Part shown: piece by piece, positions 2,217 to 19,431 of the stretch
How the letters are laid out: each line of letters opens with the position of its first letter
How positions within the stretch are numbered: the first letter of the stretch is position 1
Origin: an uncultured Calditrichaceae bacterium
GTDB lineage: Bacteria; Calditrichota; Calditrichia; Calditrichales; Calditrichaceae
Assembly: GCA_964547355.1 (NCBI GenBank)
Contig: CAZJNP010000001.1
Span: 1-34,353 of the forward strand
Reading direction: 5' to 3'
Length of the DNA: 34,353 nt
Made by a program: the position numbers and the translations under genes
Notes under the pieces: generated by a model
What the model saw: the letters and a program-made list of their open reading frames with translations, nothing else
Databases searched by the model: none
Told to the model about the DNA's origin: nothing

Positions 2217-2813
2217 ATGAAAACTACTTTTTCAGAAATCGTAATCGAAGGCCGTTTTATGCTGGTTAAAGGGTTTCTGTTAGGTTTTCTTTCGGTAAAG
2301 AATCCTGAGGGGAAATATTTTTTCCACCGCAAAGCGGGTATTCGACGCGAAACATTTAAGGATTTATTGAAAGAATTTTTTGAACTGGATAACTATGTCC
2401 ATTTGTGCCTGGAAGACAACCTGGTAAAACCGTTTGTGGAAGCCTCTAAACTGTACACCAAAATCACCGGCAACGAAGTAAAATCCATCCGGCCGATTAC
2501 TTCAGCACGTTTTAGTTTTGCTTTCGAAGTTTTCAATCGGGAAGCGGCCGCAGAAATAAAGAATGTAATCGAACATCTGCCGGAGGGCGTAAAACTGACC
2601 GATTTTTTCCCTTACGAGGAAAAAGACGCCGAGGGCAAAGGCACCGAAGCTTACGCGCCCCTGCATGAATATGTTTACCGGGCCAAAGGCGTTCTGGAAG
2701 GTGATTTTTCCGGCGTAATGGATGTTTACCTAAATCTGAAACGAAGCAAATATTCGGAATCCATTATTTGCAGCGACGTGAAGCTGGAACTGGGAGAGGA
2801 ACAAGCGGTTTGA
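2217..2813 (+). CDS. Hypothetical protein
   Basis: The 198-aa ORF has a strong RBS (TAAGGAGG, 7 nt upstream of the ATG). I recognised no family. Confidence 0.45.
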   Translation: MKTTFSEIVIEGRFMLVKGFLLGFLSVKNPEGKYFFHRKAGIRRETFKDLLKEFFELDNYVHLCLEDNLVKPFVEASKLYTKITGNEVKSIRPITSARFSFAFEVFNREAAAEIKNVIEHLPEGVKLTDFFPYEEKDAEGKGTEAYAPLHEYVYRAKGVLEGDFSGVMDVYLNLKRSKYSESIICSDVKLELGEEQAV

Positions 2814-3111: not shown

Positions 3112-3663
3112 CTAAATCCACTCTTCAAGGATTTCCTTGCGCGGGGAGGGAATTACGATTTTTTCCACCAGCAACCCTTTTTTCTCAATGATCGCCGCGC
3201 CGGCGTCCACCGCGGCTTGTACGGCGCCCACTTCTCCGGTGAGCGTAACGTAACCTTTGCCGCCGATGGCCATGGCCAGGTGCACGTTAATCAGCTTGAT
3301 TTCGGCCGCCTTCACGGCTGCGTCGGCCGCTTCGATGACCGAGGCTACGGAAAATCCTTCAATAATGCCCAGGGCTTCGATCTTCGGCATGCGCGCCACG
3401 CCGTTGATCGCCGGGAAGACTTCGGGATGAACGTTCGGAATCACAAAATGATCCACCACCGTATGAGCGCCCACGGCCACGCCGGTTTCGATACTGGCGT
3501 TCACCGCGTCCACATCGCCGCCAATAAGTACCATATATTTGCCCGGACAAATCGTCCGGTTGACCACGATCTGCACGTCCGCTCGCTTTAATACGGCGTC
3601 GGCAACTTCGTACCCTTTGGCAATACTCGATGTTTCCACAATACCAATGGCTGCGCCTTTCAT
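3112..3663 (-). CDS. pduT: BMC-T shell protein (tandem BMC domains), PduT-like with the conserved pore cysteine (…VNRTICPGKYMVLIGGD…)
   Basis: At 183 aa it contains two BMC (Pfam00936-like) domains. It is collinear with Citrobacter/Salmonella PduT, including the 'TICPGK' motif whose Cys ligates the [4Fe-4S] cluster in PduT. The RBS 'AGAGGATGA' lies upstream of the start. Confidence 0.85.
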   Translation of the reverse strand: MKGAAIGIVETSSIAKGYEVADAVLKRADVQIVVNRTICPGKYMVLIGGDVDAVNASIETGVAVGAHTVVDHFVIPNVHPEVFPAINGVARMPKIEALGIIEGFSVASVIEAADAAVKAAEIKLINVHLAMAIGGKGYVTLTGEVGAVQAAVDAGAAIIEKKGLLVEKIVIPSPRKEILEEWI

Positions 3664-3675
3664 TCGTTCATCCTC

Positions 3676-5016
3676 TTATTTGGAAATGATATGGATTCCT
3701 CTGGCTTCAATTTGCGTTACCTCTCCGCTGATGCTGGCATGCGCCGGCGCACCCAGCGCCTCTTCCGGTACGGCGCCCACTAATGCACCGGCTTCTACCC
3801 GCTGCCCCACCTGAACTACCGGACTGGCCGGTTGCCCGATATGGGAATCCAGCGGAATAATGACCTCGCCGGGATTCAGACCGGCCGGTATGAATTCAGC
3901 GTGGCGGTCGTAAGGTTTCAGGCCCAGGCGGCGGTAAACCGTATCGATCGGAATTTCCCGTCCCTTGCGCGCCGGATGCACGTCGCGAAACAGGACCTCC
4001 AGTTCTTCCGGCATGCGCGAAAGTCCCTTTTCCCGGAGCAGTTGTTTGGCGTCCACGCAGATATTTTTGGGGTCCAGCCCTTCCGGACAGGCAATCATGG
4101 TGCACACATTGCATTCGCAGCAGTATTCCGCCCACAGGCTGACCCGCTCTTTGGCTTCGCCGGTCATGAGCAGATTGCGCATCACCTTGTGTGGCTCGAT
4201 GGGATAGCCCAGGATATAGCGCGGACACATTTCCGTACACAACGAGCACTGGTCGCACTGGCCGTGCCCAATGCGCTGGTACGTTTCTTTGGGCGTGGTT
4301 TTTCGGCGCACCAGATAGTGGTCGGCCGGGAGCGCAATGAGTCCGCCCACATTTTTTGCCAGCGGCAGATTCAGATCGAATTCCACGCCGCCCATCATCA
4401 CGCCGCCGGTTAGAATGGCGGCCTGTTCCACCGTGAATCCGCCTGCCAATGCGATGCAATCCCCGAAAGTGGTTCCCACCGGCACTTTGGTGGTCAGGGC
4501 ATTTTTTACCGCGCCGGTAATGGTGACGTATTTTTCCAGCACCGGCCGCTGCTCGTCCACGGCGTGGGCAATATTGATGATGGTTTCCACGTTGTCCACC
4601 ACCGCCCCTACCTGTAAGGGGATGCCTCCGGGCGGAATGCGTCGGCCGGTGATCTCGTAAACCAGGATGTATTCGTCGCCGGCAGGATACACGTCTTCAT
4701 AAATGAGGAAATCGAATCCCAGCCGCTCCGCCTGCGGCTTAAGCACCTCCACAATATCCCGGTTTTTTTCTTTTAAGGCGATGGTAACCTTTGTTGCTCC
4801 GGTGAGCTCCTGCATGATGGTCAGACCGCGTAAAAAGGCTTCCGCTTCTTCAAGCATCACAGAACGGTCCTTGTACAGCAACGGCTCGCACTCGGCGCCG
4901 TTGGCGATCACGTGTTCCACCTGAGCGTCCAGCTTTTTGTAAGTGGGGAAACCGGCTCCTCCGGCTCCGATCACGCCGGCTTCTCTGATGCGGTGCAGTA
5001 TTTCCTGTTTATTCAT
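3676..5016 (-). CDS. pduS: PduS-like / RnfC-family Fe-S flavoprotein (NADH-binding, two 4Fe-4S motifs)
   Basis: The N-terminus 'MNKQEILHRIREAGVIGAGGAGFPT' matches the PduS/RnfC NADH-binding start. Two Cys clusters are present: 'CDQCSLCTEMCP' and 'CCECNVCTMIACP'. The track ORF starts at TTG 5022, but I prefer the ATG at 5016, which lies 2 nt after the EutJ stop. The gene ends 12 nt before the BMC-T start. Confidence 0.8.
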   Translation of the reverse strand: MNKQEILHRIREAGVIGAGGAGFPTYKKLDAQVEHVIANGAECEPLLYKDRSVMLEEAEAFLRGLTIMQELTGATKVTIALKEKNRDIVEVLKPQAERLGFDFLIYEDVYPAGDEYILVYEITGRRIPPGGIPLQVGAVVDNVETIINIAHAVDEQRPVLEKYVTITGAVKNALTTKVPVGTTFGDCIALAGGFTVEQAAILTGGVMMGGVEFDLNLPLAKNVGGLIALPADHYLVRRKTTPKETYQRIGHGQCDQCSLCTEMCPRYILGYPIEPHKVMRNLLMTGEAKERVSLWAEYCCECNVCTMIACPEGLDPKNICVDAKQLLREKGLSRMPEELEVLFRDVHPARKGREIPIDTVYRRLGLKPYDRHAEFIPAGLNPGEVIIPLDSHIGQPASPVVQVGQRVEAGALVGAVPEEALGAPAHASISGEVTQIEARGIHIISK

Positions 5017-5018
5017 AG

Positions 5019-5840
5019 TCAACTTTCCGAAAATCCGTAAGCCGCAATGGCCAGCGGCGTTAAGTATAACGGGTTCGAAGGCAGAATAATTTCGTACCCC
5101 GGTAATTCCTGTTCAAACACCCGGTCGATGCCGGGAAAACAAAAAGTCCCTCCGGAAAGATAAACAGAGTGCACGTTTTGTCCCTGCAGGTGCTGCCGGA
5201 TAATTTCCGCCATCTTCTGAAAAACCGGCATGACCACAGGGGCGAATTGTTCTGCCTGTGGGCTGCGTTTTAATTCTTCCGCTTCTTCGAGAGAAATTTT
5301 TTGATTTCCCGCCAAGGTCAGGCTCACGTGCCTGCCGCCGGTCGGTTCATCCGCCGAATAAATGATGTTGCCGTTTCTGCTGATTGCAATCCCGGTGGTA
5401 CCGCCGCCGATATCCACCACCGCCCCGTCGTCGATCTTTAACAAATGCACAACGCTGGACGGTTCGTCAATAATCGCTTTTATAGAAAGTCCGGCCGCCC
5501 GCAGGACATTCTGAACGATTTCCCGGTCCGTACCGGGCGGGTAAGAGGTCACTGCTTCTTCGATTTTAATATTGAATTTCTCTTCGGCCAGGGAAACCAG
5601 TTTTTTAACAATCTGAACCGCGCCCCAGTAATTGAGCACCACGCCATCCCGTACCACTTCGGCCCATTCCATAAACGCCGCAGCGGGTTCTCCACGTTCA
5701 TCCACCAGCAGAATCACCACATCGGCGGTGCCAAGGTCTATACCTACCTGCCAGCGCGCCGGCGCTTCCGTCGGGGAGACGTCGTTGACAATGGATGCAA
5801 TCTTTTGCAGCCGCCGGTTAATCGTTTGCAATGCATTCAT
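5019..5840 (-). CDS. eutJ: EutJ-like actin/Hsp70-fold ATPase (BMC-associated chaperone-like protein)
   Basis: It has the 'VGIDLGTADVVILLVDE' phosphate-1 motif and a 'DIGGGTTGIAI' motif typical of EutJ. I trimmed the track ORF (5019..5990) to the ATG at 5840 (MNALQTINRRL…). That start sits 8 nt downstream of the aldehyde dehydrogenase stop and has an AGGATGA RBS. The longer N-terminus in the track overlaps the aldehyde dehydrogenase gene. Confidence 0.8.
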   Translation of the reverse strand: MNALQTINRRLQKIASIVNDVSPTEAPARWQVGIDLGTADVVILLVDERGEPAAAFMEWAEVVRDGVVLNYWGAVQIVKKLVSLAEEKFNIKIEEAVTSYPPGTDREIVQNVLRAAGLSIKAIIDEPSSVVHLLKIDDGAVVDIGGGTTGIAISRNGNIIYSADEPTGGRHVSLTLAGNQKISLEEAEELKRSPQAEQFAPVVMPVFQKMAEIIRQHLQGQNVHSVYLSGGTFCFPGIDRVFEQELPGYEIILPSNPLYLTPLAIAAYGFSES

Positions 5841-5848
5841 CCTGAGCG

Positions 5849-7267
5849 TTAAACAATCCTGAAATGATCCACGATGACGCATCTGCGCAAGCGGACGAAA
5901 CTTTTGGCCGAAGTGACACCTTCGCCCGTGGGCGTGGTAATGGTCATGGAGGTCCAGCCCTCGCCGCCGAAGCCCAGTCCAGCCAGGCACGGACCGTTCT
6001 TGACAAAAATGCTGGTATTAATCTCGTTGGCCATGCGGTGCATATGATCGATGTTCCTTGAGTGCATGGCCGCGGAATGGTGTAGTCCGCGCTCCAGCTC
6101 GATGGCCGTGTCGATCGCGGCGTCGGCGTCGGGCATGCGAATCAACGGCACGACCGGCATCATCAGCTCAATGCGGGCAAAGGGGTGATTTTTATCTGTT
6201 TCCACGAACAACAGGCGCGTTTCCGGTGGCACATTTACCCCGATGGCAGCGGCCAATTTGGCGGCGTCCCTGCCGACCCATTTCCGGTTGATGACCGCAT
6301 CCGGTCCTGGATAGCCTTCCAGAATCACGCGAGCCAGCTCGTCGGCCTGAGCGGATGTTAATTCCACCGCTTTGTTTTTCTGCATCTCCTGCTTTAGCTG
6401 GTCTGCGATCTGATCGACGGCAATAATTTCTTTCTCGTCGGCGCACACGATGTTATTGTCGAAAGAGGCGCCCCAGACGATCGATTTGGCGGCTTTGGCG
6501 ATATCCGCGGTTTCGTCCACTACTACCGGAGGATTGCCGGCTCCGGCGGCCATCAGCCGTTTGTTGGTGTGTTTTCTGGCCGCCTCCACCACCGATTCTC
6601 CACCGGTAACCACCAGAAGATCGATACCCGGATATTTGAACAACTGTTGCGCGTTTTCTATGGAAGGTTCGGCCACGGTCGTTAAAAGATATTGGGGTCC
6701 GCCCACGGAAACGATGGCCTGATTGACCACTTCGATGGCGCGATGCGTGACTTTTTTTGCGGCCGGATGCGGCCCGAAGACCACGGCGTTGCCTGCCGCA
6801 ATCATGCTAATGGCGTTGTTGATGACCGTAGCCGCCGGATTGGTGGACGGCGTAATGGAAGCAATCACGCCCCAGGCCGCGTTCTCGATAATGGTTAACC
6901 CATGGTCGCCGGAGAGGGCGTCCGGTTTCAGATCTTCCAGTCCGGGTGTATGTTCGGCCTGAGAGATATTTTTTTGGATCTTGTCCTCCACGCGGCCCAT
7001 ACCGGTCTCCTGAACCGCCAGTTCCGCCAGTTCGCGGGCGTATTGAACCCCGGCCTGACGCATCGCCTGAATAATCTTTCCGCGAAATTCCAGATTGCGG
7101 ATTTTCTTCTGGGCTTCTTTAGCCACCTGCACCGCTTCGTCCAGCGTTTCGTAAACTCCGGCCGGGTACTTCTTTGCAGTCGAACGAACGGTGGTCGGTT
7201 GTGCCTGGTTCAGGCGGGCCATTACCGAATCGACGATTTGGGAAATCTCCCTGTCCGATAAAGCCAT
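5849..7267 (-). CDS. eutE: CoA-acylating aldehyde dehydrogenase (EutE/PduP-like) with an N-terminal amphipathic encapsulation peptide
   Basis: This is an aldehyde dehydrogenase superfamily fold with a catalytic Cys region ('…FDNNIVCADEKE…'). I chose the start at the ATG at 7267 (MALSDREISQIVDSVMARL…) because it has an AAGGAAA RBS. The track's upstream extension (MLHFIAAFF…) lacks one. The first ~18 residues form an amphipathic helix followed by a Pro/Thr-rich linker, as in PduP/EutE encapsulation peptides. Confidence 0.85.
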   Translation of the reverse strand: MALSDREISQIVDSVMARLNQAQPTTVRSTAKKYPAGVYETLDEAVQVAKEAQKKIRNLEFRGKIIQAMRQAGVQYARELAELAVQETGMGRVEDKIQKNISQAEHTPGLEDLKPDALSGDHGLTIIENAAWGVIASITPSTNPAATVINNAISMIAAGNAVVFGPHPAAKKVTHRAIEVVNQAIVSVGGPQYLLTTVAEPSIENAQQLFKYPGIDLLVVTGGESVVEAARKHTNKRLMAAGAGNPPVVVDETADIAKAAKSIVWGASFDNNIVCADEKEIIAVDQIADQLKQEMQKNKAVELTSAQADELARVILEGYPGPDAVINRKWVGRDAAKLAAAIGVNVPPETRLLFVETDKNHPFARIELMMPVVPLIRMPDADAAIDTAIELERGLHHSAAMHSRNIDHMHRMANEINTSIFVKNGPCLAGLGFGGEGWTSMTITTPTGEGVTSAKSFVRLRRCVIVDHFRIV

Positions 7268-7409
7268 GGTGTTTCCTTTATTTCGATTTGAATATTTTAA
7301 CAAAAAGAAAGCTGCAATAAAATGCAGCAAAAGTAAATGTTACGTTGCCGGTTACAGACATATTTTTATAGCATCCGGCAGCGAAGACGAACGGTGGAAC
7401 AGAAGAACG

Positions 7410-7700
7410 CTATTCCAGCGTTCCTTTTAATTTAATCGGAAACACTTCTTCCAGATCGCCGTGCGGACGCGGGATCACGTGCACGGAAACCAGCTCGCCT
7501 ACCCGTTCGGCAGCCGCAGCACCGGCGTCGGTGGCCGCTTTACAGGCCGCCACATCGCCACGTACCAGCGCGGTGACGTATCCGCCGCCAATCTGTTCGT
7601 AAGCCACCAGTTTTACACGCGCGGCTTTGACCATGGCGTCCGCGGCTTCTATCAGGCCTACGAGGCCCTTGGTTTCGATCATTCCCAAAGCTTCCATCAT
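7410..7700 (-). CDS. BMC-H hexameric shell protein (PduA/EutM-like), copy 1
   Basis: The sequence '[29 protein letters not shown]…[19 protein letters not shown]' is the canonical BMC-H (Pfam00936) fold. A GAGGAG RBS precedes the ATGATG start. Confidence 0.9.
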
Positions 7701-7821
7701 GGAATACTCCTCTGTTGCGACCGGATTTTTTGTCCGGTCTCTCTATGGCTGTTACATTGAATTATCTGCTGCGAACAGCCGGTTTAACCTAAAGGAAATG
7801 CGGCAGATTCCCGGCTTGCGG

Positions 7822-8109
7822 CTATTCAATCTTTCCTTTTAATTTTATGGGAAACACGTCTTCCAGATCACCATGCGGACGCGGAATCACATGCACGGAC
7901 ACCAGCTCGCCGACCCGTTCGGCAGCCGCAGCGCCGGCGTCGGTTGCCGCTTTACAGGCAGCTACATCGCCGCGTACCAGCGCGGTGACGTATCCGCCGC
8001 CGATTTGTTCATAAGCCACCAGCTTTACTTTGGCCGCTTTGACCATGGCGTCCGCCGCTTCAATCAATCCTACCAGCCCCTTGGTTTCAATCATACCTAA
8101 TGCTTCCAT
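7822..8109 (-). CDS. BMC-H hexameric shell protein (PduA/EutM-like), copy 2
   Basis: It differs from copy 1 at about 4 of 95 aa. An AAAGGAG RBS precedes the start. Confidence 0.9.
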
Positions 8110-8198
8110 AAAGCGCTCCTTTATTAGGTTTGTGAATTTTCAATTACCTTTGTTTTTCAATCCCTGAAGGCCGGATCGTCCGGCATAACAGTTTTAAG

Positions 8199-9212
8199 TT
8201 ACGAATGACTTAAATTTAACTGGTTCTTCTCTAATAAACAACAAGCAAGAATCGTTGTTTTAATAAAACTTTCCGCGCTGCCGGTGGCAGGCAGGCCGTG
8301 TACCGGTTTCCTGAAACCGGTGTAAAAGGGCCCGTAAAGATGCCATCCGGCCAAATCGCGTGCGATCTTATACCCGATGTTGGCCGCGTTCAGCGAGGGA
8401 AAAATGAGCACATTGGCTTGACCCTGCAATTTACTACCGGGCGCTTTTTTGGCGGCCACTTCCGGCACGATGGCCGCGTCGAACTGCAATTCTCCCTCAA
8501 TGGTCATGCCGGTTTTTTGCCCCTGCGCCTGTTGCACGGCTTTCGTTACCTGATCCACCAGCTCGTGCCGGGCGCTGCCCATGGTAGAAAACGAAAGCAA
8601 CGCCACCCGCGGCTCTTCTTCGGTCATTTGCGCGTAAGCCCGCCCCGTGTTCACCGCAATGGACGCCAATTGCTGCGCCGTTGGCCGGGGCAGCACGCAG
8701 CAATCCGCGAAAGCCAGCGCCCGTTGGTTGTCCGGGCTAACCAGTAGATAAAATCCTGATACCGTATTTTCGGCCTCATCCACACCCACCATCTGGAGAA
8801 CCGCTTGCAACGCATCTTTAATGGGCGATTGGTTTCCGGTCATCACAAGGTCGGCCAATCCCCTGGCCACAAAACCGCTGCCGTACCAGAGCGGGTCGTT
8901 TAGCAGTGATTCTGCCTGGTAACGGGTCAGCCCTTTGGCTTTACGGCGGTCAAAGAAAGCGCGTACCAAATGGTCAAATTCCGGATCGTGCCGGGGTTGA
9001 CGAATCTTGATCCCGGTCAGAGAAATGCGAAAACGTGCGGCGAAATCCCGGATGGCGGACTTGGCGCCAATCAAAATCGGGTCTGCCAGGTTTTCATCCT
9101 TCAGATAACGAACCGTTTGCAGTACGCGTTCGTCCAGAGCGTCGGTAAAAACAATGCGGCGCGGTCGTTTACGGCAGCCTTCACGGCACCGATTTATGAT
9201 CTTTTCAAACAT
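8199..9212 (-). CDS. eutD: Phosphate acetyltransferase, EutD/Pta-type
   Basis: It is strongly collinear with E. coli EutD. Our N-terminus MFEKIINRCRE…RRIVFTDALDERVL matches EutD MIIERCRE…ARVVFPDALDQRVL. 'GFADCCVLPRPTAQQLASIA…EEPRVALLSFSTMGSARH' matches EutD '[20 protein letters not shown]…EEPRVAMLSFSSNGSARH'. 'GELQFDAAIVPEVAAKKAP…ANVLIFPSLNAANIGYKIA' matches 'GELQFDAAFVPEVAAQKAP…ANVMVFPSLEAGNIGYKIA'. The 337 aa compares with 338 for EutD. Confidence 0.9.
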   Translation of the reverse strand: MFEKIINRCREGCRKRPRRIVFTDALDERVLQTVRYLKDENLADPILIGAKSAIRDFAARFRISLTGIKIRQPRHDPEFDHLVRAFFDRRKAKGLTRYQAESLLNDPLWYGSGFVARGLADLVMTGNQSPIKDALQAVLQMVGVDEAENTVSGFYLLVSPDNQRALAFADCCVLPRPTAQQLASIAVNTGRAYAQMTEEEPRVALLSFSTMGSARHELVDQVTKAVQQAQGQKTGMTIEGELQFDAAIVPEVAAKKAPGSKLQGQANVLIFPSLNAANIGYKIARDLAGWHLYGPFYTGFRKPVHGLPATGSAESFIKTTILACCLLEKNQLNLSHS

Positions 9213-9217
9213 CGCGG

Positions 9218-9526
9218 TTACTTTTTGAATCTTTGCAGCACGTCGATGACCACTTCCCGGATCAGGTTCGGATCGCGCTGGTCGGCCGGCAAACGCTCCA
9301 CGACACGCTCAATCACCTGGCGCACAGTGGTTTCGTCGATATCGTTAAATTGAGCGTTTTGGGCCGCGTCCGGCTGTTTTTGCTCTTCCAGCAGCGCAAT
9401 CCCCAGGTCTTTGGCTAGTGAACGGGCTTCGGGCGTTACGATGTATTGGTTTTTAAACGCCTCGATTTCCTTAATGCCGTCTGTGTGCGCCTGCCGTACC
9501 ATGCGGGCGGTGATTAATTTCTTCAT
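9218..9526 (-). CDS. Small protein (102 aa) of unknown family with a basic N-terminus. It is translationally coupled downstream of ParA and is a candidate ParA partner or adaptor.
   Basis: Its ATG overlaps the ParA stop (ATGA), and its own stop lies 5 nt before the eutD start. The N-terminus 'MKKLITARMVRQ' is Lys/Arg-rich, and the protein is predicted helical. I did not recognise the family. Confidence 0.55.
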   Translation of the reverse strand: MKKLITARMVRQAHTDGIKEIEAFKNQYIVTPEARSLAKDLGIALLEEQKQPDAAQNAQFNDIDETTVRQVIERVVERLPADQRDPNLIREVVIDVLQRFKK

Positions 9527-10308
9527 TTTTCTGCCGGGCCTCCGGTAAGTCGCATGCGGTTTAATATTTCTTCGGCCAGGGCCATATACTCTTTAGCGCC
9601 ACGGGCTGAAGGAGCGTAATCGATAACCGGTTTCCGGACGTGAAACGCTTCGACCAGCTTGCTGTTTACGCCGATCACCGTCTGAAATATTTGTCTGGGA
9701 AACCGTTGTTGGATCAGAGTGTACACGTCTTTGGCCACGCGCGTGCGGCGGTCGTATTGCGTGCCGAAGACGCCCAGAATCCTTAACCTGGGATTCAGAT
9801 GGCGCCTGGTTTTTTCGATGACGTTTAACGTTACGTCCAGTCCGCTGAGACCGAGATACTGGGTTTGGATGGGGATCAGAACGTAATCGGCAATGGCCAG
9901 CGCATTTAAAGCCAGGCTGCCCATGTTGGGCGGACTATCAAACAGGACGATTTCAAAGCGATCCGGGAAATCTTCCCGGTGCAGAAAAAAATCCTGCTCT
10001 TCTTCCAGGGCTATTTCTTCCAGAAATTCGCTCAGCGCCGGCTCGGAGGGTAAACAGTGCAGGAATCCGTTGCCGACCGGGTAAATATAATCGGAAATTT
10101 TGCGCTGGGGTTGGATTAAAAAATCGCAAATGGTTTGGTAATCCTTCTCCTGCTTGTCAAAGCCGAAGTGCAGCGAGGCGCTGGCCGAGGGGTCCAGGTC
10201 TACCAGCAGACAGCGTTGATTCATTTTGGCGAAGCAGGCCGCTAAATTGACCGCGCTGGTGGTTTTCCCGATGCCGCCTTTGTTGTTGACGATGGCTACG
10301 AATTTCAT
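9523..10308 (-). CDS. ParA/MinD/Soj-family P-loop ATPase (deviant Walker A 'KGGIGKTT')
   Basis: The N-terminus 'MKFVAIVNNKGGIGKTTSAVNLAACFA' carries the classic ParA deviant Walker A with the signature Lys. The ~261 aa length fits the family. The start overlaps the EutK-like stop (ATGA). Confidence 0.85.
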   Translation of the reverse strand: MKFVAIVNNKGGIGKTTSAVNLAACFAKMNQRCLLVDLDPSASASLHFGFDKQEKDYQTICDFLIQPQRKISDYIYPVGNGFLHCLPSEPALSEFLEEIALEEEQDFFLHREDFPDRFEIVLFDSPPNMGSLALNALAIADYVLIPIQTQYLGLSGLDVTLNVIEKTRRHLNPRLRILGVFGTQYDRRTRVAKDVYTLIQQRFPRQIFQTVIGVNSKLVEAFHVRKPVIDYAPSARGAKEYMALAEEILNRMRLTGGPAEK

Positions 10309-10859
10309 TTCCGCCTCTTGGGTTTAATGGCGAAATAACGCTGCCGGATTTTTTCCACCGCACTGGCGTCCATGAGTTGTTTCAGGATCAAACGCAGCTG
10401 AGCCGCTTCCAGTTTAAAGCGGGCGGCCATTTCCTGAAGGGAGGCGCCCTGCGGCGATTGCTTTAAATGATCCAGAATGAGTTGGTCGGGAGGTTGAGAA
10501 GGGGACGCGGGCTTTTTGGCCCCTTTTCTTCGTTTGGACGCGGGTTTGGTGGCAGACGGTGCGGGCGGTTTGCGTTTGGGAGCGCCGATCCATTCTTCCA
10601 CCAGATGTTGCGTGTCGTCGAACGGATTGGCGATTACGTGAGCGGCCACCAGTTCACCGACGCGGTCGGCCGCCACGCTGCCGGCATTAACCGCGGCCTG
10701 ACAGGCACCCAGTTCGCCCCGAACCACAATCATTACCAGCGCGCCGCCCACCCGGCGCCATTTGATCAGTTCCACTTTGGCTGCTTTGACCATGGCATCG
10801 GCCGCTTCGATCGCTCCCACATAGCCGCGCGTTTCTATAAAACCGTAGGATAGCTTCAT
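10305..10859 (-). CDS. eutK: EutK-like shell protein: N-terminal BMC-H domain, a basic Pro/Lys/Ala/Ser-rich disordered linker, and a C-terminal helix-turn-helix (EutK_C-like) domain
   Basis: The BMC domain reads '[27 protein letters not shown]…VMIVVRGELGACQAAVNAG'. The linker reads 'APKRKPPAPSATKPASKRRKGAKKPASPSQPP'. The C-terminal ~60 aa (LILDHLKQSPQGASLQEMAARFKLEAAQLRLILKQLMDASAVEKI) looks like a winged-helix domain, as in the E. coli EutK C-terminal domain. The start is either M at 10877 or M at 10859. Confidence 0.75.
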   Translation of the reverse strand: MKLSYGFIETRGYVGAIEAADAMVKAAKVELIKWRRVGGALVMIVVRGELGACQAAVNAGSVAADRVGELVAAHVIANPFDDTQHLVEEWIGAPKRKPPAPSATKPASKRRKGAKKPASPSQPPDQLILDHLKQSPQGASLQEMAARFKLEAAQLRLILKQLMDASAVEKIRQRYFAIKPKRRK

Positions 10860-10953
10860 AATTAATAAATTAAACAAATAATCGCTTTACAAGCAAGCAA
10901 GAATCAAACTTGGGCCAAATAAATCTAAAGCTGCTCCCGTGCGGGAAACCCGG

Positions 10954-12882: not shown

Positions 12883-14238
12883 ATGGTGGCTGCGTTAATG
12901 GTATCTATATCGGGCATTCGGGGAGTGATCGGTGAGTCTCTGACGCCGGCTGTGGTGGACAAATACATTTCGGCCTTCGCCAAATATCTGAACGGCGGCA
13001 AAGTGGTGCTGGGCAGAGATTCCCGTGTTTCCGGGCCTTTTTTGTCCGATCTTGTGCGGGGTGTTCTGGTGGCTTCCGGTTGTCAGGTAATCGACATCGG
13101 AATTGTGCCCACGCCCACGGTTCAGTTAGAGGTGGAACATCATCAGGCGGCCGGTGGCATTGCCATTACGGCCAGCCATAACCCCATTCAGTGGAATGGT
13201 TTAAAATTTATGGGCAGCGACGGCCGCTTTTTGAGTCCCGCGGAAGCGGAAAAGGTGTTTGCCATGGCCGACTATGGCGAAACGGATTTCAAAGCCTGGG
13301 ATCGACTGGGTACGATCGCGCTGGATGACGGCGCCATTCGACGTCATATTGAGCGGGTTAAAAAAATCTCTTACATTGATGTGGAGGCGTTGCGTAAACG
13401 TCGCTTCAAGGTGGCGGTGGATACGGTGAACGGTGCCGGCGGTGTCATCATACCGCAACTACTGGAAGAGTTAGGCTGCGAAGTGATTACCCTGAATCAG
13501 GAACCGAACGGACGGTTTGCCCACACACCGGAACCTCTGCCGGAGAACCTGACCCAGCTGTGCGAGAAAGTAAAAGAAACCGGCGCCGACGTGGGATTTG
13601 CGGTGGATCCTGATGTGGATCGCTGCGCAATCGTGGATAACAATGGCCGGCCTATCGGCGAAGAGTACACGCTGGTGATCGCCACCAAACTGGTGTTCAG
13701 TAAAAAAATGGGACGCATGGTGGTTAACATGTCCACGTCGCGGGCGTCGGAAGATATAGTGAAATACTACAACGGCATGTTCATGCGCAGCAAGGTGGGC
13801 GAAATAAACGTAGCCGAAAAGATGAAGGAAATCGACGCCATCTTAGGCGGCGAGGGCAACGGAGGGGTCATCCTGCCGGAAGTACATCTGGGAAGGGACG
13901 CGCCGGTGGCTGTGGCGTTAACATTGCAGCAGTTGCTGGAATTCGGCGGAACCATGGCCGAACTGCACGCTTCTCTGCCGCAATATGTGATGATTAAGCA
14001 AAAAGTGAATATCGAGGGCATGGACCCGGATCGGGTGCTGCAAGTCATGGCCGAAAAATACAAAGACCGGCCGATCGATTTGCTGGACGGGGTGAAGATC
14101 GATTTTGAGAACAGCTGGGTGCACATGCGCAAGTCCAACACGGAACCGATTGTGCGCGTGATTAGCGAAGCGCCCACGGAGGAAGAAGCGCTGTCATTAG
14201 GTAAACGTTTTATGGACGAAATAAAGGCGTTAATGTAA
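12883..14238 (+). CDS. Phosphohexomutase-superfamily mutase (PGM/PMM/GlmM-like). From its neighbours it probably acts as a phosphopentomutase (deoxyribose-1-P to deoxyribose-5-P).
   Basis: It has the active-site 'TASHNP' phosphoserine motif and an N-terminal 'SISGIRGV' Mg/phosphate loop. The 451 aa fits GlmM and the archaeal-type PPM. AAGGAGG lies 6 nt upstream of the ATG. The function is assigned from context (the deoC and deoA neighbours), not from sequence. Confidence 0.75.
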   Translation: MVAALMVSISGIRGVIGESLTPAVVDKYISAFAKYLNGGKVVLGRDSRVSGPFLSDLVRGVLVASGCQVIDIGIVPTPTVQLEVEHHQAAGGIAITASHNPIQWNGLKFMGSDGRFLSPAEAEKVFAMADYGETDFKAWDRLGTIALDDGAIRRHIERVKKISYIDVEALRKRRFKVAVDTVNGAGGVIIPQLLEELGCEVITLNQEPNGRFAHTPEPLPENLTQLCEKVKETGADVGFAVDPDVDRCAIVDNNGRPIGEEYTLVIATKLVFSKKMGRMVVNMSTSRASEDIVKYYNGMFMRSKVGEINVAEKMKEIDAILGGEGNGGVILPEVHLGRDAPVAVALTLQQLLEFGGTMAELHASLPQYVMIKQKVNIEGMDPDRVLQVMAEKYKDRPIDLLDGVKIDFENSWVHMRKSNTEPIVRVISEAPTEEEALSLGKRFMDEIKALM

Positions 14239-14239
14239 C

Positions 14240-14524
14240 ATGCAGATTTGCCGGGTGATCGGGGATATTGTGTCCACGGTTAAAAACGAACATTTTAAGG
14301 GAAAGAAAATTCTGATTGTTCAGCCGCTGGACCTGGAGGATCAACCGCAGGGCAAAGCATTTTTAGCTTTGGATACGGTACAGGCCGGACCGGGCGACCG
14401 CGTTCTGGTGATGCGGGAAGGCGGTTCGGCGCGCATTATTTTTGAGGATAACGATATCCCGGTGCAGGCGGTCATTACCGCCGTGGTGGACGATATTCGC
14501 TTAGACGCGGACGCGCTTGATTAA
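14240..14524 (+). CDS. eutN: BMC-P pentameric vertex protein (EutN/PduN/CcmL family)
   Basis: The 94-aa protein matches the EutN pattern at 'ICRVIGDIVST' and 'QAGPGDRVLVMREGGSAR' (compare EutN 'GAGPGEWVLVSRGSAAR'). Its ATG begins 1 nt after the mutase stop. Confidence 0.85.
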   Translation: MQICRVIGDIVSTVKNEHFKGKKILIVQPLDLEDQPQGKAFLALDTVQAGPGDRVLVMREGGSARIIFEDNDIPVQAVITAVVDDIRLDADALD

Positions 14525-14607
14525 CAAATCTCCGCACATTAGCGAGGCAAAACACTTGTGAGGAGAAAAAAGAAATGCGAAAACCTGTTTAAAATAGAGG
14601 ATTATTT

Positions 14608-15432
14608 ATGTCTTCCATTACCAGCGATGTGATTGAACGGATTATTTCCCAGGTCATTTCCGAGAAACATATTGCACCGCGACCATTCACGTACGACGCG
14701 GCCAACGAATTGATTTCTTTCGGCGCCAATCGGGTCGGTGCTGTGGGTCCCACTTGTCCGCCCAAATACGAACTGGCACGCTGGATTGACCATACACTGC
14801 TCAAACCGGACGCTACACAAAAAGACGTGGAAAAAATCTGCTACGAAGCCCGTGATTACCATTTCGCTTCTGTGTGTATCAATCCTACCTGGGTGCCTTT
14901 GGCACATAAAATTTTACGCGGCAGCGAGTCCCGTGTGTGCACCGTGATCGGCTTTCCACTGGGCGCCACATTCCCGGAAGTCAAAGCCCGTGAAGCGCAA
15001 CTGGCCGTTGAAAACGGCGCTGACGAGCTGGATATGGTCATTAACATCGGTGCGCTCAAGTCCGGCGATTATGATCTGGTGGAACGGGATATTCGCGCGG
15101 TGGTACGCGCTGCGGGCCGGCGTATCGTTAAAGTGATTATTGAAACCTGTTTATTAACCGACGAAGAAAAAGTTAAAGCCTGCGCCATTGCCAAGCATGC
15201 CGGAGCCAATTTCGTCAAAACGTCCACCGGTTTCAGCAAGGGCGGTGCCACGGTGAAAGATGTGGCTTTGATGCGCAAGGTCGTAGGCGAATCCATGGGT
15301 GTAAAAGCCAGCGGCGGCGTACGCTCCTACGAGGAAGCCTGTAAAATGGTGGAAGCCGGTGCCACCCGCATTGGCGCCAGCGCCAGCGTGGCTATTGTGG
15401 GTAACGGGAACGGTAAGGACGCGGATTACTAA
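14608..15432 (+). CDS. deoC: Deoxyribose-phosphate aldolase (DERA/DeoC) with a ~50-aa N-terminal extension carrying a putative encapsulation peptide
   Basis: The core is class I aldolase TIM: '…[18 protein letters not shown]…' and '[21 protein letters not shown]…VKASGGVRS', including the Schiff-base Lys in 'FVKTSTGF'. The extension '[20 protein letters not shown]' is an amphipathic helix that is absent from free DeoC (E. coli DeoC starts near the equivalent of 'LKPDAT'). Confidence 0.9.
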
Positions 15433-15664
15433 AGCAGCGATTGTCGTGATTCGGTGTTCGTTAATGGGCATTATGATTTGATTAATAGCCCTTGACCAAT
15501 GTCCAAAGGCCAATGGTTAATTACACACAGATAGCAGTTAAATGAACGATGAATTATGACCACCGAATGAAGAATTGCGATTTCGAGGTCAATCTTCTTC
15601 TTTTGTATTCGGATGGGAAAAAATATAAAGAAAAAAAATAAATCTAAACCAGAGAAGGAATGGT

Positions 15665-16981
15665 ATGACCCCTTACGAGATAATCAGTAAAAAACGCGAT
15701 GGCTTTGAATTAAGCGATGAAGAAATTGAATTCATGGTTCTGGGTTTTGCCCGCGGCGAAATTCCGGATTATCAAATGTCGGCTTTGCTGATGGCTGTTT
15801 TTTTGCGGGGCATGAGTCAGCATGAAACCATGGCCTTAACCAAAACCATGCTTAATTCCGGGCGGGTGGTGGACCTGAGCCATATTCCGGGCGTAAAGGT
15901 GGATAAGCACAGCACCGGCGGTGTGGGAGACAAAGTGTCCATTATTTTAGCGCCCATTGTCGTTGCGGCCGGCGTTCTGGTGCCCATGATTTCCGGACGC
16001 GGTCTGGGGCATACCGGCGGTACGCTGGATAAGCTGGAAAGCATTCCCGGCTTTCGGGTCAATTATTCTATCCAGGAATATGCCGAAAAAATCGCAAAAA
16101 TCGGCACCTGCCTGATCGGGCAAACGCCGGATATTGTGCCGGCCGACAAAAAAATGTATGCCCTGCGGGACGTCACCGCCACCATTCAATCCATTCCGCT
16201 GATTACTGGCAGCATAATGAGCAAGAAACTGGCTGAAGGGATCGACGCCCTGGTGCTGGATGTGAAGACCGGGAAAGGCGCTTTTATGCAAAAGTATGAG
16301 GATTCCGTGGCTCTTGCCAAACAGTTGATCGCCACGGGCGAGCGGTTCGGCAAGCCCACGGTGGCTTACATCACGGACATGAACGAACCGCTAGGCAGGG
16401 CCGTGGGCAACTGGAATGAGATCGAAGAATGCATTTACGCATTGCAGGGAGACGGCCCTGAAGATTTAATGGAAGTAACGCACACGTTGTGCGGTGCCAT
16501 GATTTATCTCGGCAAAAAGGCGGGTTCTATCGATGAGGGCAAGGAAATCTCCAGAGAGATGATCCGTTCCGGAAAAGCATGGGACAAATTCCTGGAGATT
16601 GTGTCCGAACAGGAAGGCGATGTTGAAATGGTGAAGAATCCGCAAAAATATCCCAAATCAAAATTCAGCGTTCAGGTTACGGCGGAACAGGACGGCTATA
16701 TTGCCGGGATCGACGCCCTGGAGGTGGGGCTGACCGCGGTTATTTTGGGAGCGGGCCGCACGAAGTCGGATGACGAAATCGATCCCAAGGCCGGCATCAT
16801 GGTGCACAAAAAAGGCGGGGATCGAGTAGCAAAAGGCGAAACGCTTATGACCGTTTACACGGACAAGGAAAATGTTCTGACGGAAGCGCAAAAACGGTTG
16901 GGCCAGGCGGTTACTTATGCCAAACAATCAGTAGCACCGCGGCAGTTGATTTATGAGTACCTGGATAAGAACAGCTTGTAA
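15665..16981 (+). CDS. deoA: Thymidine / pyrimidine-nucleoside phosphorylase
   Basis: The 438-aa protein carries 'KHSTGGVGDKVSIILAPIVAAAGV' and 'SGRGLGHTGGTLDKLESIPGF', hallmarks of thymidine phosphorylase family 3. GAGAAGGAATGG provides the RBS. Confidence 0.9.
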   Translation: MTPYEIISKKRDGFELSDEEIEFMVLGFARGEIPDYQMSALLMAVFLRGMSQHETMALTKTMLNSGRVVDLSHIPGVKVDKHSTGGVGDKVSIILAPIVVAAGVLVPMISGRGLGHTGGTLDKLESIPGFRVNYSIQEYAEKIAKIGTCLIGQTPDIVPADKKMYALRDVTATIQSIPLITGSIMSKKLAEGIDALVLDVKTGKGAFMQKYEDSVALAKQLIATGERFGKPTVAYITDMNEPLGRAVGNWNEIEECIYALQGDGPEDLMEVTHTLCGAMIYLGKKAGSIDEGKEISREMIRSGKAWDKFLEIVSEQEGDVEMVKNPQKYPKSKFSVQVTAEQDGYIAGIDALEVGLTAVILGAGRTKSDDEIDPKAGIMVHKKGGDRVAKGETLMTVYTDKENVLTEAQKRLGQAVTYAKQSVAPRQLIYEYLDKNSL

Positions 16982-18321: not shown

Positions 18322-19431
18322 TTAGTGTTCAATAAAAACAAGTTTTGCAATTCCAATACTCAGGCCTAATTGTTGGTCACCCAGGTAGTGGGTAGCCTTA
18401 ACGGTCAGTTGAAATTGTTTGCCCAGTGGATAGCCTGCTTCCACACCCAGTAACAGGGGCTTGGATTTGCTTTTCCAACCACCCACCCAAAGCCAGGCAT
18501 CGGGATATTGAATATAATATTTCGCTCCCCAGGAATATGGTATTAAAAAATCATGCCACATGGCCGCTGTCAGGTAGAATTCTTTCATCAGGCCCAGGCG
18601 CAGATTAGCAAAAGGCAGCACCCACAATTCGGGTGCTCCACTGCAATAAAGGTCACCTAAGCGAAAATAGGTTAAACCGACGTTAATTCCCACATAGTGC
18701 CATACAAATTGACCGCCGGCCTGCAGAAAATAGGGAACGGAGATATGGTGATAAGCGGGCAGCGGTCCGAGCTCGTCTACCGACCAGTCGCATTCGCAAC
18801 AGCCGGTACCGGATTCCACATGGCGGGCAATACCGCCGCTGAACAATAGTCCGTGCTCTTCTTTTTGCGGTCGAAGCGAAAACCAGAGACCCTGGAAAAT
18901 ATCGCGGTCATCACCGGATTCGCTGTAAAAAAAGGTTCCGGAAAAGCTAACCCGATACGGAGTCTTCTTTTTCCGGAAAGGCTGATCCGCCCAGATACCG
19001 CGTTTGAATTTTTGCGCTTCGCTTTGCGCAGCTTCGGCTGCCGTTTTGTATTTTGTACCGGCATTGTCCACAAAGCGGCCGTAACCGCTTTTTAAAAACT
19101 CAATGTTCAGATTTCTTTTTTCCAGCGGATATTTCACCAGAAAATACACCAGCGGATAACCAGACTCGCTCCTGAAACCCGTGAATACTACTTCCACATT
19201 GCCGTTTCTTTCCAATCGCAAACGAATATATTTACGGATCGCCTTAGCCTGGGCCTGTTTGGCCGAGTCCGGATCTGACAACGATGGCGCGGCAATATTA
19301 CCCATCTGAACCTTTTGCCCATCGGAAAGAAGGAACAGGTTGGCGTCCAGCACTTCTTTAACCCACACATCGCCGCTCACGGCAAAACGAAACAATAATG
19401 CAATGATAAAGATGGTGCGCATCATAATCAT
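18322..19431 (-). CDS. Secreted protein: signal peptide, then a staphylococcal-nuclease-like (SNase/OB-fold) domain lacking catalytic residues, then a C-terminal beta-rich (possibly outer-membrane) domain
   Basis: It has an N-terminal signal peptide (MIMMRTIFIIALLFRFAVSG). 'VKEVLDANLFLLSDGQKVQMGNIAAPS' aligns to the SNase 'V.RV.DGDT..V..G..V.VRL.GIDAPE' motif, but DGD is replaced by DAN and the APE glutamate by Ser. The C-terminal region has alternating aromatic/hydrophobic residues. Confidence 0.55.
   Translation of the reverse strand: MIMMRTIFIIALLFRFAVSGDVWVKEVLDANLFLLSDGQKVQMGNIAAPSLSDPDSAKQAQAKAIRKYIRLRLERNGNVEVVFTGFRSESGYPLVYFLVKYPLEKRNLNIEFLKSGYGRFVDNAGTKYKTAAEAAQSEAQKFKRGIWADQPFRKKKTPYRVSFSGTFFYSESGDDRDIFQGLWFSLRPQKEEHGLLFSGGIARHVESGTGCCECDWSVDELGPLPAYHHISVPYFLQAGGQFVWHYVGINVGLTYFRLGDLYCSGAPELWVLPFANLRLGLMKEFYLTAAMWHDFLIPYSWGAKYYIQYPDAWLWVGGWKSKSKPLLLGVEAGYPLGKQFQLTVKATHYLGDQQLGLSIGIAKLVFIEH

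Follow-up and report, generated by a model that had tools for sequence, protein, structure and literature searches.

A EutK-like shell protein gene paired with a Soj-type ParA gene: a candidate positioning module for a catabolic bacterial microcompartment

In a 34,353-nt stretch of DNA from an uncultured Calditrichaceae bacterium (contig CAZJNP010000001.1; "the window" hereafter denotes this whole stretch), three successive open reading frames (ORFs) on the minus strand form the start of the shell and core operon of a bacterial microcompartment (BMC), and encode in order a EutK-like shell protein, a ParA ATPase and a small protein of 102 aa. We propose that the EutK-like shell protein and ParA together constitute, with somewhat better than even probability, a two-gene positioning/segregation module for a catabolic microcompartment. 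The proposal is carried by the strict synteny of the two genes among related loci, the absence of ParB beside them, and the replacement of ParB-docking residues throughout the ParA clade to which the window's protein belongs. The trio comprises the following features:

10305-10859, minus strand: EutK-like shell protein, 184 aa (190 aa from an alternative TTG start at 10877)
9523-10308, minus strand: Soj-type ParA ATPase of a microcompartment-specific clade, 261 aa
9218-9526, minus strand: cupin-less EutQ N-terminal-domain protein, 102 aa
10305-10308, minus strand: ATGA in which the stop of the shell gene overlaps the start of ParA
9523-9526, minus strand: ATGA in which the stop of ParA overlaps the start of the small gene

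An earlier note on this DNA, made from the letters and their translations, had described three consecutive genes joined by these ATGA overlaps, and both overlaps were confirmed. The end that it gave for the shell gene, 10877, corresponds to a real ORF, but the likely start is the ATG at 10859 (MKLSYGF...), preferred over the TTG because the gene calls of homologues start likewise. The note had also read stoichiometric expression from the overlaps, which they do not prove, such four-base overlaps being common in operons. The shell gene is without a Shine-Dalgarno sequence; ParA is preceded by GAGG and the small gene by GGAGG. Immediately 5' of the shell ATG, we observed an AT-rich leader that translates as FNL-x-[IF]M (window 10860-10880; related loci L004, 131-150, and L005, 2176-2195), which points to another start codon or to a conserved regulatory or untranslated element.

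Conservation of the shell gene-ParA pair

Related loci (given L-numbers here) were collected through a genome scan, a metagenome scan with a ParA alignment, and contig look-ups for ParA and EutK-like homologues. Scanning the genome collection with a single ParA recovered two close loci only, and most loci came from the alignment-based metagenome scan. Clade loci were defined by a ParA at least 48% identical to that of the window and by the availability of upstream DNA, giving 36 loci, or 29 non-redundant ones after clustering at 95% ParA identity. Every one of the 29 has, directly upstream of ParA, a EutK-like gene comprising a BMC-H domain, a linker and a winged helix. The junction between the two genes ranged from -26 to +14 nt, with the ATGA overlap present in 17 of 34 tabulated loci; the corresponding overlap of ParA with the small gene was kept in few relatives. 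A BMC-H protein carrying an unrelated extension was accompanied by no ParA. The earlier note had allowed that ParA might prove not to be conserved next to shell genes; its presence there in 29 of 29 non-redundant loci supports the note's own view of a ParA dedicated to the microcompartment and not a stray partition gene.

The ParAs nearest to the clade (34-39% identity) provided an outgroup, for which no microcompartment gene was found nearby and a canonical ParB followed all ten of the ParAs tested. No ParB homologue was found next to ParA in any clade locus, and the LG[KR]GL motif occurred in no real ORF there.

Downstream of ParA the gene content was less uniform. Among 25 readable non-redundant loci, the next gene encoded a EutQ N-terminal (EutQ-N) protein in 13 and no such protein in 12; other arrangements consisted of a BMC-H gene directly after ParA (five), the order BMC-H-EutP-full-length EutQ (five), and Pta (two). 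The five clusters with BMC-H directly after ParA yielded no EutQ-like ORF in the sequence available, and the BMC-H-EutP-EutQ order corresponded to true ethanolamine (EUT) loci with EutABC. The shell gene-ParA pair thus occurs in three contexts, namely the deoxyribose-phosphate aldolase locus of the window, EutABC loci (L033, L035 and L053), and L089. In sister loci with the core gene order of the window, no deoxyribose-phosphate aldolase was seen.

Several individual loci merit description. L089 (8001-16561) also carries genes for a class II aldolase, an acetate kinase and a second aldehyde dehydrogenase nearby. Its sub-group, which includes L034 and L048-L051, is organized as EutK-like gene, ParA and then two BMC-H genes, with no EutQ-like gene, and its linker is Gly/Ser-rich and weakly basic. 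In L033, an apparently free 106-aa "HTH_11" protein upstream of ParA was rejected as a gene-call artefact, the real ORF (9402-10004) encoding a 200-aa EutK-like protein with a Gly/Lys-rich linker; in automated surveys, gene-call errors of this kind could cause the architecture to be missed. Also identified, in L082 (474-2101), were short, frame-broken ParA fragments (about 49% identity) between BMC-H genes, which may be remnants of a decaying cassette or the product of misassembly.

The public names of homologues are mostly those of Calditrichota, and the setting of relatives is chromosomal: a 5.03 Mb replicon, where the position is mid-replicon, and a 698 kb contig. The cassette is present in one complete Calditrichota genome. 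A cultured host is likely, because one homologue bears the NCBI name Caldithrix abyssi; in the locus of that species (L031, L088) no signature enzyme was seen.

Architecture of ParA, the shell protein and the small protein

Within the two paired proteins, the following segments were delineated:

9961-10047, minus strand: clade-specific acidic segment of ParA, residues 88-116, net charge -10, aligning with the ParB-docking helices H6/H7
10590-10859, minus strand: BMC-H domain of the shell protein, residues 1-90 (AlphaFold2 pLDDT >90)
10491-10589, minus strand: disordered Lys/Arg/Pro/Ala-rich linker, residues 91-123, net charge +9
10305-10490, minus strand: EutK_C-type winged helix-turn-helix and stop codon, residues 124-184, with a basic tail KPKRRK

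Judged by its motifs, the clade ParA is a deviant Walker A ATPase with the signature lysine and with the aspartates of Walker A' and Walker B. The window's ParA matches Pfam AAA_31 (E 1.6e-41) and carries NNKGGIGKTT, in agreement with the classic deviant Walker A recognized in the earlier note. Its closest solved structures are Soj of T. thermophilus (E 4e-46) and 8RAY, the ParA of an M. xanthus study (E 1e-43), while the solved cyanobacterial McdA (6NOO), the only McdA type compared, gave E 8e-12. A reading of the ATPase as an Fe-S carrier (Mrp/NBP35) was rejected, the match being confined to the P-loop (residues 2-52). When 18 clade members were compared with 10 outgroup or chromosomal ParAs, the catalytic residues K10, K15, D37, D39 and D124 proved invariant in the clade, as did R188 and K217. 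These latter positions correspond to R189 and R218 of B. subtilis Soj, both needed for non-specific DNA binding (PMC3778016).

Conversely, the site through which ParA would contact ParB is altered. In M. xanthus ParA, the ParB-docking site has been defined as a surface residue, Y81, and a pocket, L150-L152 (PMC12462528), which we mapped onto the clade through the 8RAY alignment. The Y81 position is occupied by Cys throughout the clade (18 of 18) and by Tyr throughout the outgroup (10 of 10); at the L152 position (in PPSLGLL), every clade member has Ser, Asn, Pro or Gln and every outgroup ParA has Leu or Ile. The net charge of the H6/H7 segment ranges from -4 to -10 across the 18 clade members versus -4 to +2 in the 10 chromosomal ParAs. 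Taken together, these changes read as the signature of a ParA that has switched partner, and the new partner is probably more basic.

By alignment, the shell protein is a true EutK homologue. It matches the Pfam BMC domain (E 3e-25), its alignment to the NCBIfam EutK model spans residues 4-176, and it aligns end to end with E. coli EutK at 35% identity (E 6e-21). An AlphaFold2 model built from 51 homologues placed no secondary structure in residues 91-122 (predicted local distance difference test, pLDDT, 50-62), followed by a winged helix with three helices and a beta wing (residues 124-177, pLDDT about 95). A Foldseek search with the two-domain model returned only BMC-H structures, matching the BMC domain to EutM, PduA and CutN at target TM-scores of 0.88-0.93 and leaving the winged helix unmatched. 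Scanned alone, the C-terminal domain exceeded the Pfam EutK_C threshold of 27.5 bits at 28.0 bits; a family profile matched the structure of the E. coli EutK C-terminal domain (3I71) at E 0.005, and IclR- and MarR-type helix-turn-helix (HTH) families were matched as well. The earlier note's description of a BMC-H domain joined to a basic disordered linker and a helix-turn-helix is therefore borne out by the Pfam matches, linker charge and AlphaFold2 model.

The linker, KRKPPAPSATKPASKRRKGAKKPASPSQPP, has a net charge of +9 and an isoelectric point (pI) of 11.8 (the stretch is also written APKRKPPAPSATKPASKRRKGAKKPASPSQPPD, net charge +9). Among relatives the linkers are variable in sequence, 22-58 aa long and of net charge +2 to +13. 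An expanded, basic linker could be peculiar to EutK-like proteins linked to a ParA, because E. coli EutK, which has no ParA partner, carries a short one of net negative charge. Within the linker coding region (window 10503-10553) we also noted an 18-nt imperfect direct repeat encoding a repeated KPAS/KKPAS, which is consistent with linker expansion by duplication.

The third gene encodes a protein of a different kind from that first envisaged. The 102-aa product had been described as a small basic protein and as a ParA stimulator of the McdB, ParB or MinE type. The whole protein has a pI of 6.59 and a net charge of 0, with only its first 20 residues mildly basic (net +3), and its predicted helical character, its similarity to EutQ and its absence from the position after ParA in 12 of 25 loci do not support a stimulator role. 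It matches positions 1-99 of the 233 in the NCBIfam EutQ model (E 6e-14); from end to end, it can also be aligned with the N-terminal parts of the full-length EutQ proteins that related EUT loci encode. It stops at residue 102, has no Pfam match and is without the C-terminal cupin (acetate kinase) domain. On this similarity, it is identified as a stand-alone EutQ N-terminal domain. A low-confidence single-sequence model showed four helices and a flexible centre, and comparison with solved structures gave no meaningful match. An exhaustive search of 1.84 billion representatives returned only 34 related clusters, about 25 of them stand-alone (91-116 aa) and about seven full-length EutQ. An aromatic residue (Phe/Tyr) occurs in the C-terminal region of about 15 of 21 stand-alone homologues, and a C-terminal Trp in none of the 21. 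Shell-cargo association in Salmonella requires residues 1-99 of EutQ, in which H1/H2 bind the shell and H3/H4 bind cargo encapsulation peptides (PMC12487888). The small protein is thus a probable shell-cargo linker that lies outside the core positioning pair.

Operon setting and metabolic type of the compartment

The remainder of the operon and a divergent gene cluster were annotated as follows:

3112-9212, minus strand: rest of the shell and core operon (Pfam and NCBIfam matches), with the seven genes listed next
8199-9212, minus strand: Pta, PF01515 type
7822-8109 and 7410-7700, minus strand: two BMC-H genes
5849-7267, minus strand: acylating aldehyde dehydrogenase (subfamily model NF011927, E 2e-205)
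about 5019-5840, minus strand: EutJ
3676-5022, minus strand: PduS-like flavoprotein
3112-3663, minus strand: BMC-T
12883-16981, plus strand: divergent cargo and feeder cluster, with the four genes listed next
12883-14238, plus strand: PGM/PMM-family mutase
14240-14524, plus strand: BMC-P
14608-15432, plus strand: deoxyribose-phosphate aldolase (TIGR00126, E 1e-90) with an N-terminal encapsulation-peptide-like helix
15665-16981, plus strand: pyrimidine nucleoside phosphorylase

The order of shell and core genes in the window recurs in L004, L031, L032, L036, L040 and L062. An Asp-Al_Ex permease gene lies upstream of the trio on the same strand, with the divergent cluster beyond it. Scans for repeats, promoters and terminators around the operon gave counts no higher than in shuffled sequence and nothing centromere-like, and parS-like repeats between 9000 and 13000 comprised only short two-copy matches, of a kind often due to chance. 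Between a TerB-domain gene and the BMC-T gene, we also observed a 198-aa ORF (window 2217-2813, plus strand) with no Pfam or NCBIfam match.

The compartment is a metabolosome handling acetaldehyde made from deoxyribose 5-phosphate, because the aldolase and the aldehyde dehydrogenase are both encoded in the locus and both begin with amphipathic helices of the encapsulation-peptide type (that of the dehydrogenase being SDREISQIVDSVMARL). These N-termini look like the expected ligands of the EutQ N-domain protein. The aldolase carries a 54-residue N-terminal extension (helix region 14608-14680, plus strand). The start of the dehydrogenase is most likely MALSDREISQIVDSVMARL, at the ATG at 7267 and not the TTG at 7330 (helix region 7205-7267, minus strand). 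Deoxyribose-phosphate aldolase and aldehyde dehydrogenase are shared with the SPU (sugar-phosphate utilising) class of BMC loci, for which three BMC-P genes and, in the majority of subtypes, a phosphotransacylase of the PduL type are reported (PMC11585597); in contrast, the window has one BMC-P gene and a PF01515-type Pta, and its shell and core gene order is that of EUT loci carrying the same ParA clade. The mutase, whose best match is the archaeal-type GlmM model TIGR03990 (E 2e-158), is encoded one base from the BMC-P gene and may supply the pathway's phosphopentomutase activity. Just past the nucleoside phosphorylase and RsgA genes lies one for a 369-aa protein that contains a staphylococcal-nuclease domain (18322-19431, minus strand). 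The nuclease, mutase and phosphorylase together suggest that scavenging of DNA or nucleosides feeds deoxyribose 5-phosphate to the compartment.

The positioning model, its alternatives and known systems

Under the proposed mechanism, ParA-ATP dimers would coat the nucleoid via the conserved Soj-type DNA-binding residues, and EutK-like hexamers within the shell would each display six basic linkers and winged helices on the cytosolic face. In solved shells, the concave face that carries the BMC-H termini points outward. Either the linker or the winged helix, or the two together, would engage the remodelled acidic partner site of ParA, and by stimulating ATP hydrolysis the tails would clear ParA locally, such that compartments would follow ParA gradients upward, keep apart from one another and be inherited in the manner of the McdAB and ParABS diffusion ratchets. 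The tails would probably also touch DNA, a contact that is plausible because the linker resembles histone-like granule-tethering tails (PMC13052382). The adaptor would then be a structural subunit of the shell, with no separate McdB or ParB, and the 102-aa protein would glue the shell to cargo encapsulation peptides without being required for ParA function. The earlier note had placed the adaptor in the shell protein and/or the small protein; of these, the EutK-like protein is the most plausible, and the case for the small protein is unsupported. We give about even weight to a fuller version of the proposal, according to which the pair is a portable two-gene cassette and the metabolosome counterpart of McdAB, with a EutK-type shell subunit bearing an expanded basic tail in place of the free adaptor and a Soj-derived ParA with a rebuilt ParB-docking site.

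A number of points weigh against this mechanism. The cytosol-facing placement of the tails is presumed from other shells, for which it is established for BMC-H C-termini. Linker sequence is poorly conserved, and its net charge is only +2 in the aldolase-type sub-group (L034 type), so a simple charge-docking model may be wrong; in 11 loci compared by eye, linker charge did not track ParA acidity. Further, the EutK tail may act by plain nucleoid tethering, because Salmonella EutK acts without an operon-encoded ParA.

A related alternative, which we consider unlikely, holds that ParA acts without a nucleoid gradient, either as an ATP-driven assembly or anti-aggregation factor or as a switch for DNA tethering by the EutK-like protein. 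Loss of McdAB mainly results in aggregation (PMC8359340), EutK alone affects compartment distribution in Salmonella (PMC12487888), and K/P/A-rich tails tether polyhydroxybutyrate (PHB) and polyphosphate granules to DNA without any ParA (PMC13052382). However, the Soj-type DNA-binding residues are invariant in the clade, the closest relatives of its ParA are nucleoid-binding chromosomal ParAs, and the protein ends in a normal Soj C-terminal helix instead of a MinD-like membrane helix. Similarly unlikely, and if anything slightly more so, is a McdB-like role for the 102-aa protein, whose H1/H2 would bind the shell while its N-terminus stimulates ParA, leaving the EutK-like protein as a mere neighbour. 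The small protein does follow ParA directly in 13 of the 25 readable non-redundant loci, with an ATGA overlap in the window, but it is absent there in the remaining 12: aldolase-type loci have no EutQ-like ORF in the available sequence, and in EUT loci its homologue is full-length EutQ, two genes further on. Binding of EutM/EutL by the EutQ N-terminus (PMC4827028, PMC12487888) would supply the shell contact, although the same N-terminus occurs in bacteria without ParA and its characterised role is lumen-side shell-cargo bridging (PMC12487888). The N-terminal 20 residues are net +3 in a protein that is neutral overall and predicted to be helical, not disordered; and although the aromatic C-termini reported for McdB-like proteins (PMC8359340) are brought to mind by the C-terminal aromatic that about 15 of the 21 stand-alone homologues have, this residue is not invariant and in none of the 21 is it a C-terminal Trp.

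It is distinctly improbable that the winged helix and ParA instead form a regulatory pair for operon transcription, for example in sensing unassembled shell protein. Operon autoregulation is known for some ParA systems, and the C-terminal domain of the shell protein also resembles IclR- and MarR-type regulators; yet there is no operator-like repeat array near the operon, in every locus the winged helix is part of the shell polypeptide itself, and ParA is without the N-terminal HTH found in autoregulating type Ia ParAs. The known eutK phenotype, moreover, is spatial (PMC12487888). The view that ParA is an ordinary chromosome or plasmid partition protein, with ParB and parS elsewhere and shell genes beside it by chance, is largely refuted and carries very little probability. 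Although ParA belongs to the Soj/ParA family by sequence and homologues are publicly annotated as "chromosome partitioning protein", the synteny holds for 29 of 29 non-redundant loci, which span three locus types and several named lineages; neither the Tyr nor the Leu of the ParB-docking site is retained; each of the ten ParAs tested just outside the clade has a ParB beside it; and the setting is chromosomal and mid-replicon. We therefore retain the reading in which the EutK-like shell protein and ParA position the compartment, with the adaptor most plausibly built into the shell protein.

The idea of such a system has precedents. ParA (PF01656) was listed among the ancillary genes of BMC loci in 2014 (PMC4207490). 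MacCready and colleagues argued for McdAB-like genes adjoining four non-carboxysome BMC types, with McdB-like proteins that end in tyrosine (PMC8359340, PMC8262871; repeated in PMC13052382); the small EutQ-N protein, which often ends in Y-x-K, may be what these authors scored as McdB-like. EutK and PduK matter for compartment distribution, and Yang and colleagues (2025), who found that deletion of eutK in Salmonella results in polar, static Eut compartments, speculated that EutK acts like, or with, ParB (PMC12487888). Salmonella Pdu compartments were shown in 2026 to be independent of ParA, MinD and transplanted McdAB, and as of that year no ParA-based system had been demonstrated for any metabolosome (PMC12866334). 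The novelty claimed in the earlier note stands in this last respect, but the idea itself was overstated as new, having been anticipated in print in 2014 and 2025. In the literature searched, we found no description of an obligatory EutK-like-ParA pair, of a remodelled ParB-docking site, or of the small protein as a EutQ N-domain. The locus would accordingly be a ParA-type cargo-positioning system with a shell-integrated adaptor, which is not categorically new because the idea was anticipated.

How catabolic microcompartments are spaced and inherited is a current question that this locus family makes directly testable, the gene for a EutK-type shell protein being naturally tied here to that for a dedicated ATPase. 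The family also provides concrete targets for mutation, namely C61, S131 and the acidic helix of ParA and the linker and winged helix of the EutK-like protein. If correct, the proposal would supply a missing mechanism for the partitioning phenotypes of EutK, and possibly PduK, and would show that direct coupling of ParA systems to a capsid-like lattice is possible. The compact cassette might further be used to distribute engineered microcompartments in heterologous hosts.

Among known systems, the closest analogy is with McdA/McdB of carboxysomes (beta-type in S. elongatus, alpha-type in H. neapolitanus), which likewise place a ParA-family ATPase in a microcompartment operon without ParB. By analogy, a cargo-bound partner and the logic of a nucleoid diffusion ratchet with anti-aggregation would be expected in both, and the clade ParA shares the signature Walker A lysine of alpha-type and type 2 beta McdA (PMC8359340). 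In contrast, the cargo here is a catabolic metabolosome, and the candidate adaptor is a shell protein encoded upstream, whereas McdB is encoded downstream as a free-standing, disordered protein whose C-terminus has a Trp; the small protein has neither the invariant C-terminal Trp of McdB (aromatic in the last four positions) nor its disorder. The clade ParA was probably recruited independently of McdA, because it is far closer to Soj than to the solved cyanobacterial McdA. With chromosomal ParABS (Soj/Spo0J and that of M. xanthus), its closest family, it shares size, C-terminal helix and catalytic and DNA-binding residues that are identical or conservatively substituted; it differs in having no ParB or LG[KR]GL motif nearby and, between 9000 and 13000, no parS-like repeats beyond the short two-copy matches, and in the replaced docking Tyr and Leu and strongly acidic adjoining helices.

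For the other components, the BMC-H and C-terminal helix-turn-helix architecture of the shell protein is that of E. coli and Salmonella EutK; enterobacterial eutK has no adjacent ParA, whereas the window protein has a long linker rich in Lys/Arg, and its gene ends in an ATGA overlap with that of a dedicated ParA. The small protein matches over its whole length the N-domain of Salmonella EutQ (1-99), with four helices and a flexible centre, and differs from EutQ in being without the cupin/acetate kinase domain. Finally, the nucleoid tethers PhaM, PhaF and AlgP, which operate without a dedicated ATPase and without fusion to a shell protein, resemble the EutK-like tail in that their Lys/Pro/Ala-rich histone-like tails attach a cytoplasmic body to DNA (PMC13052382).

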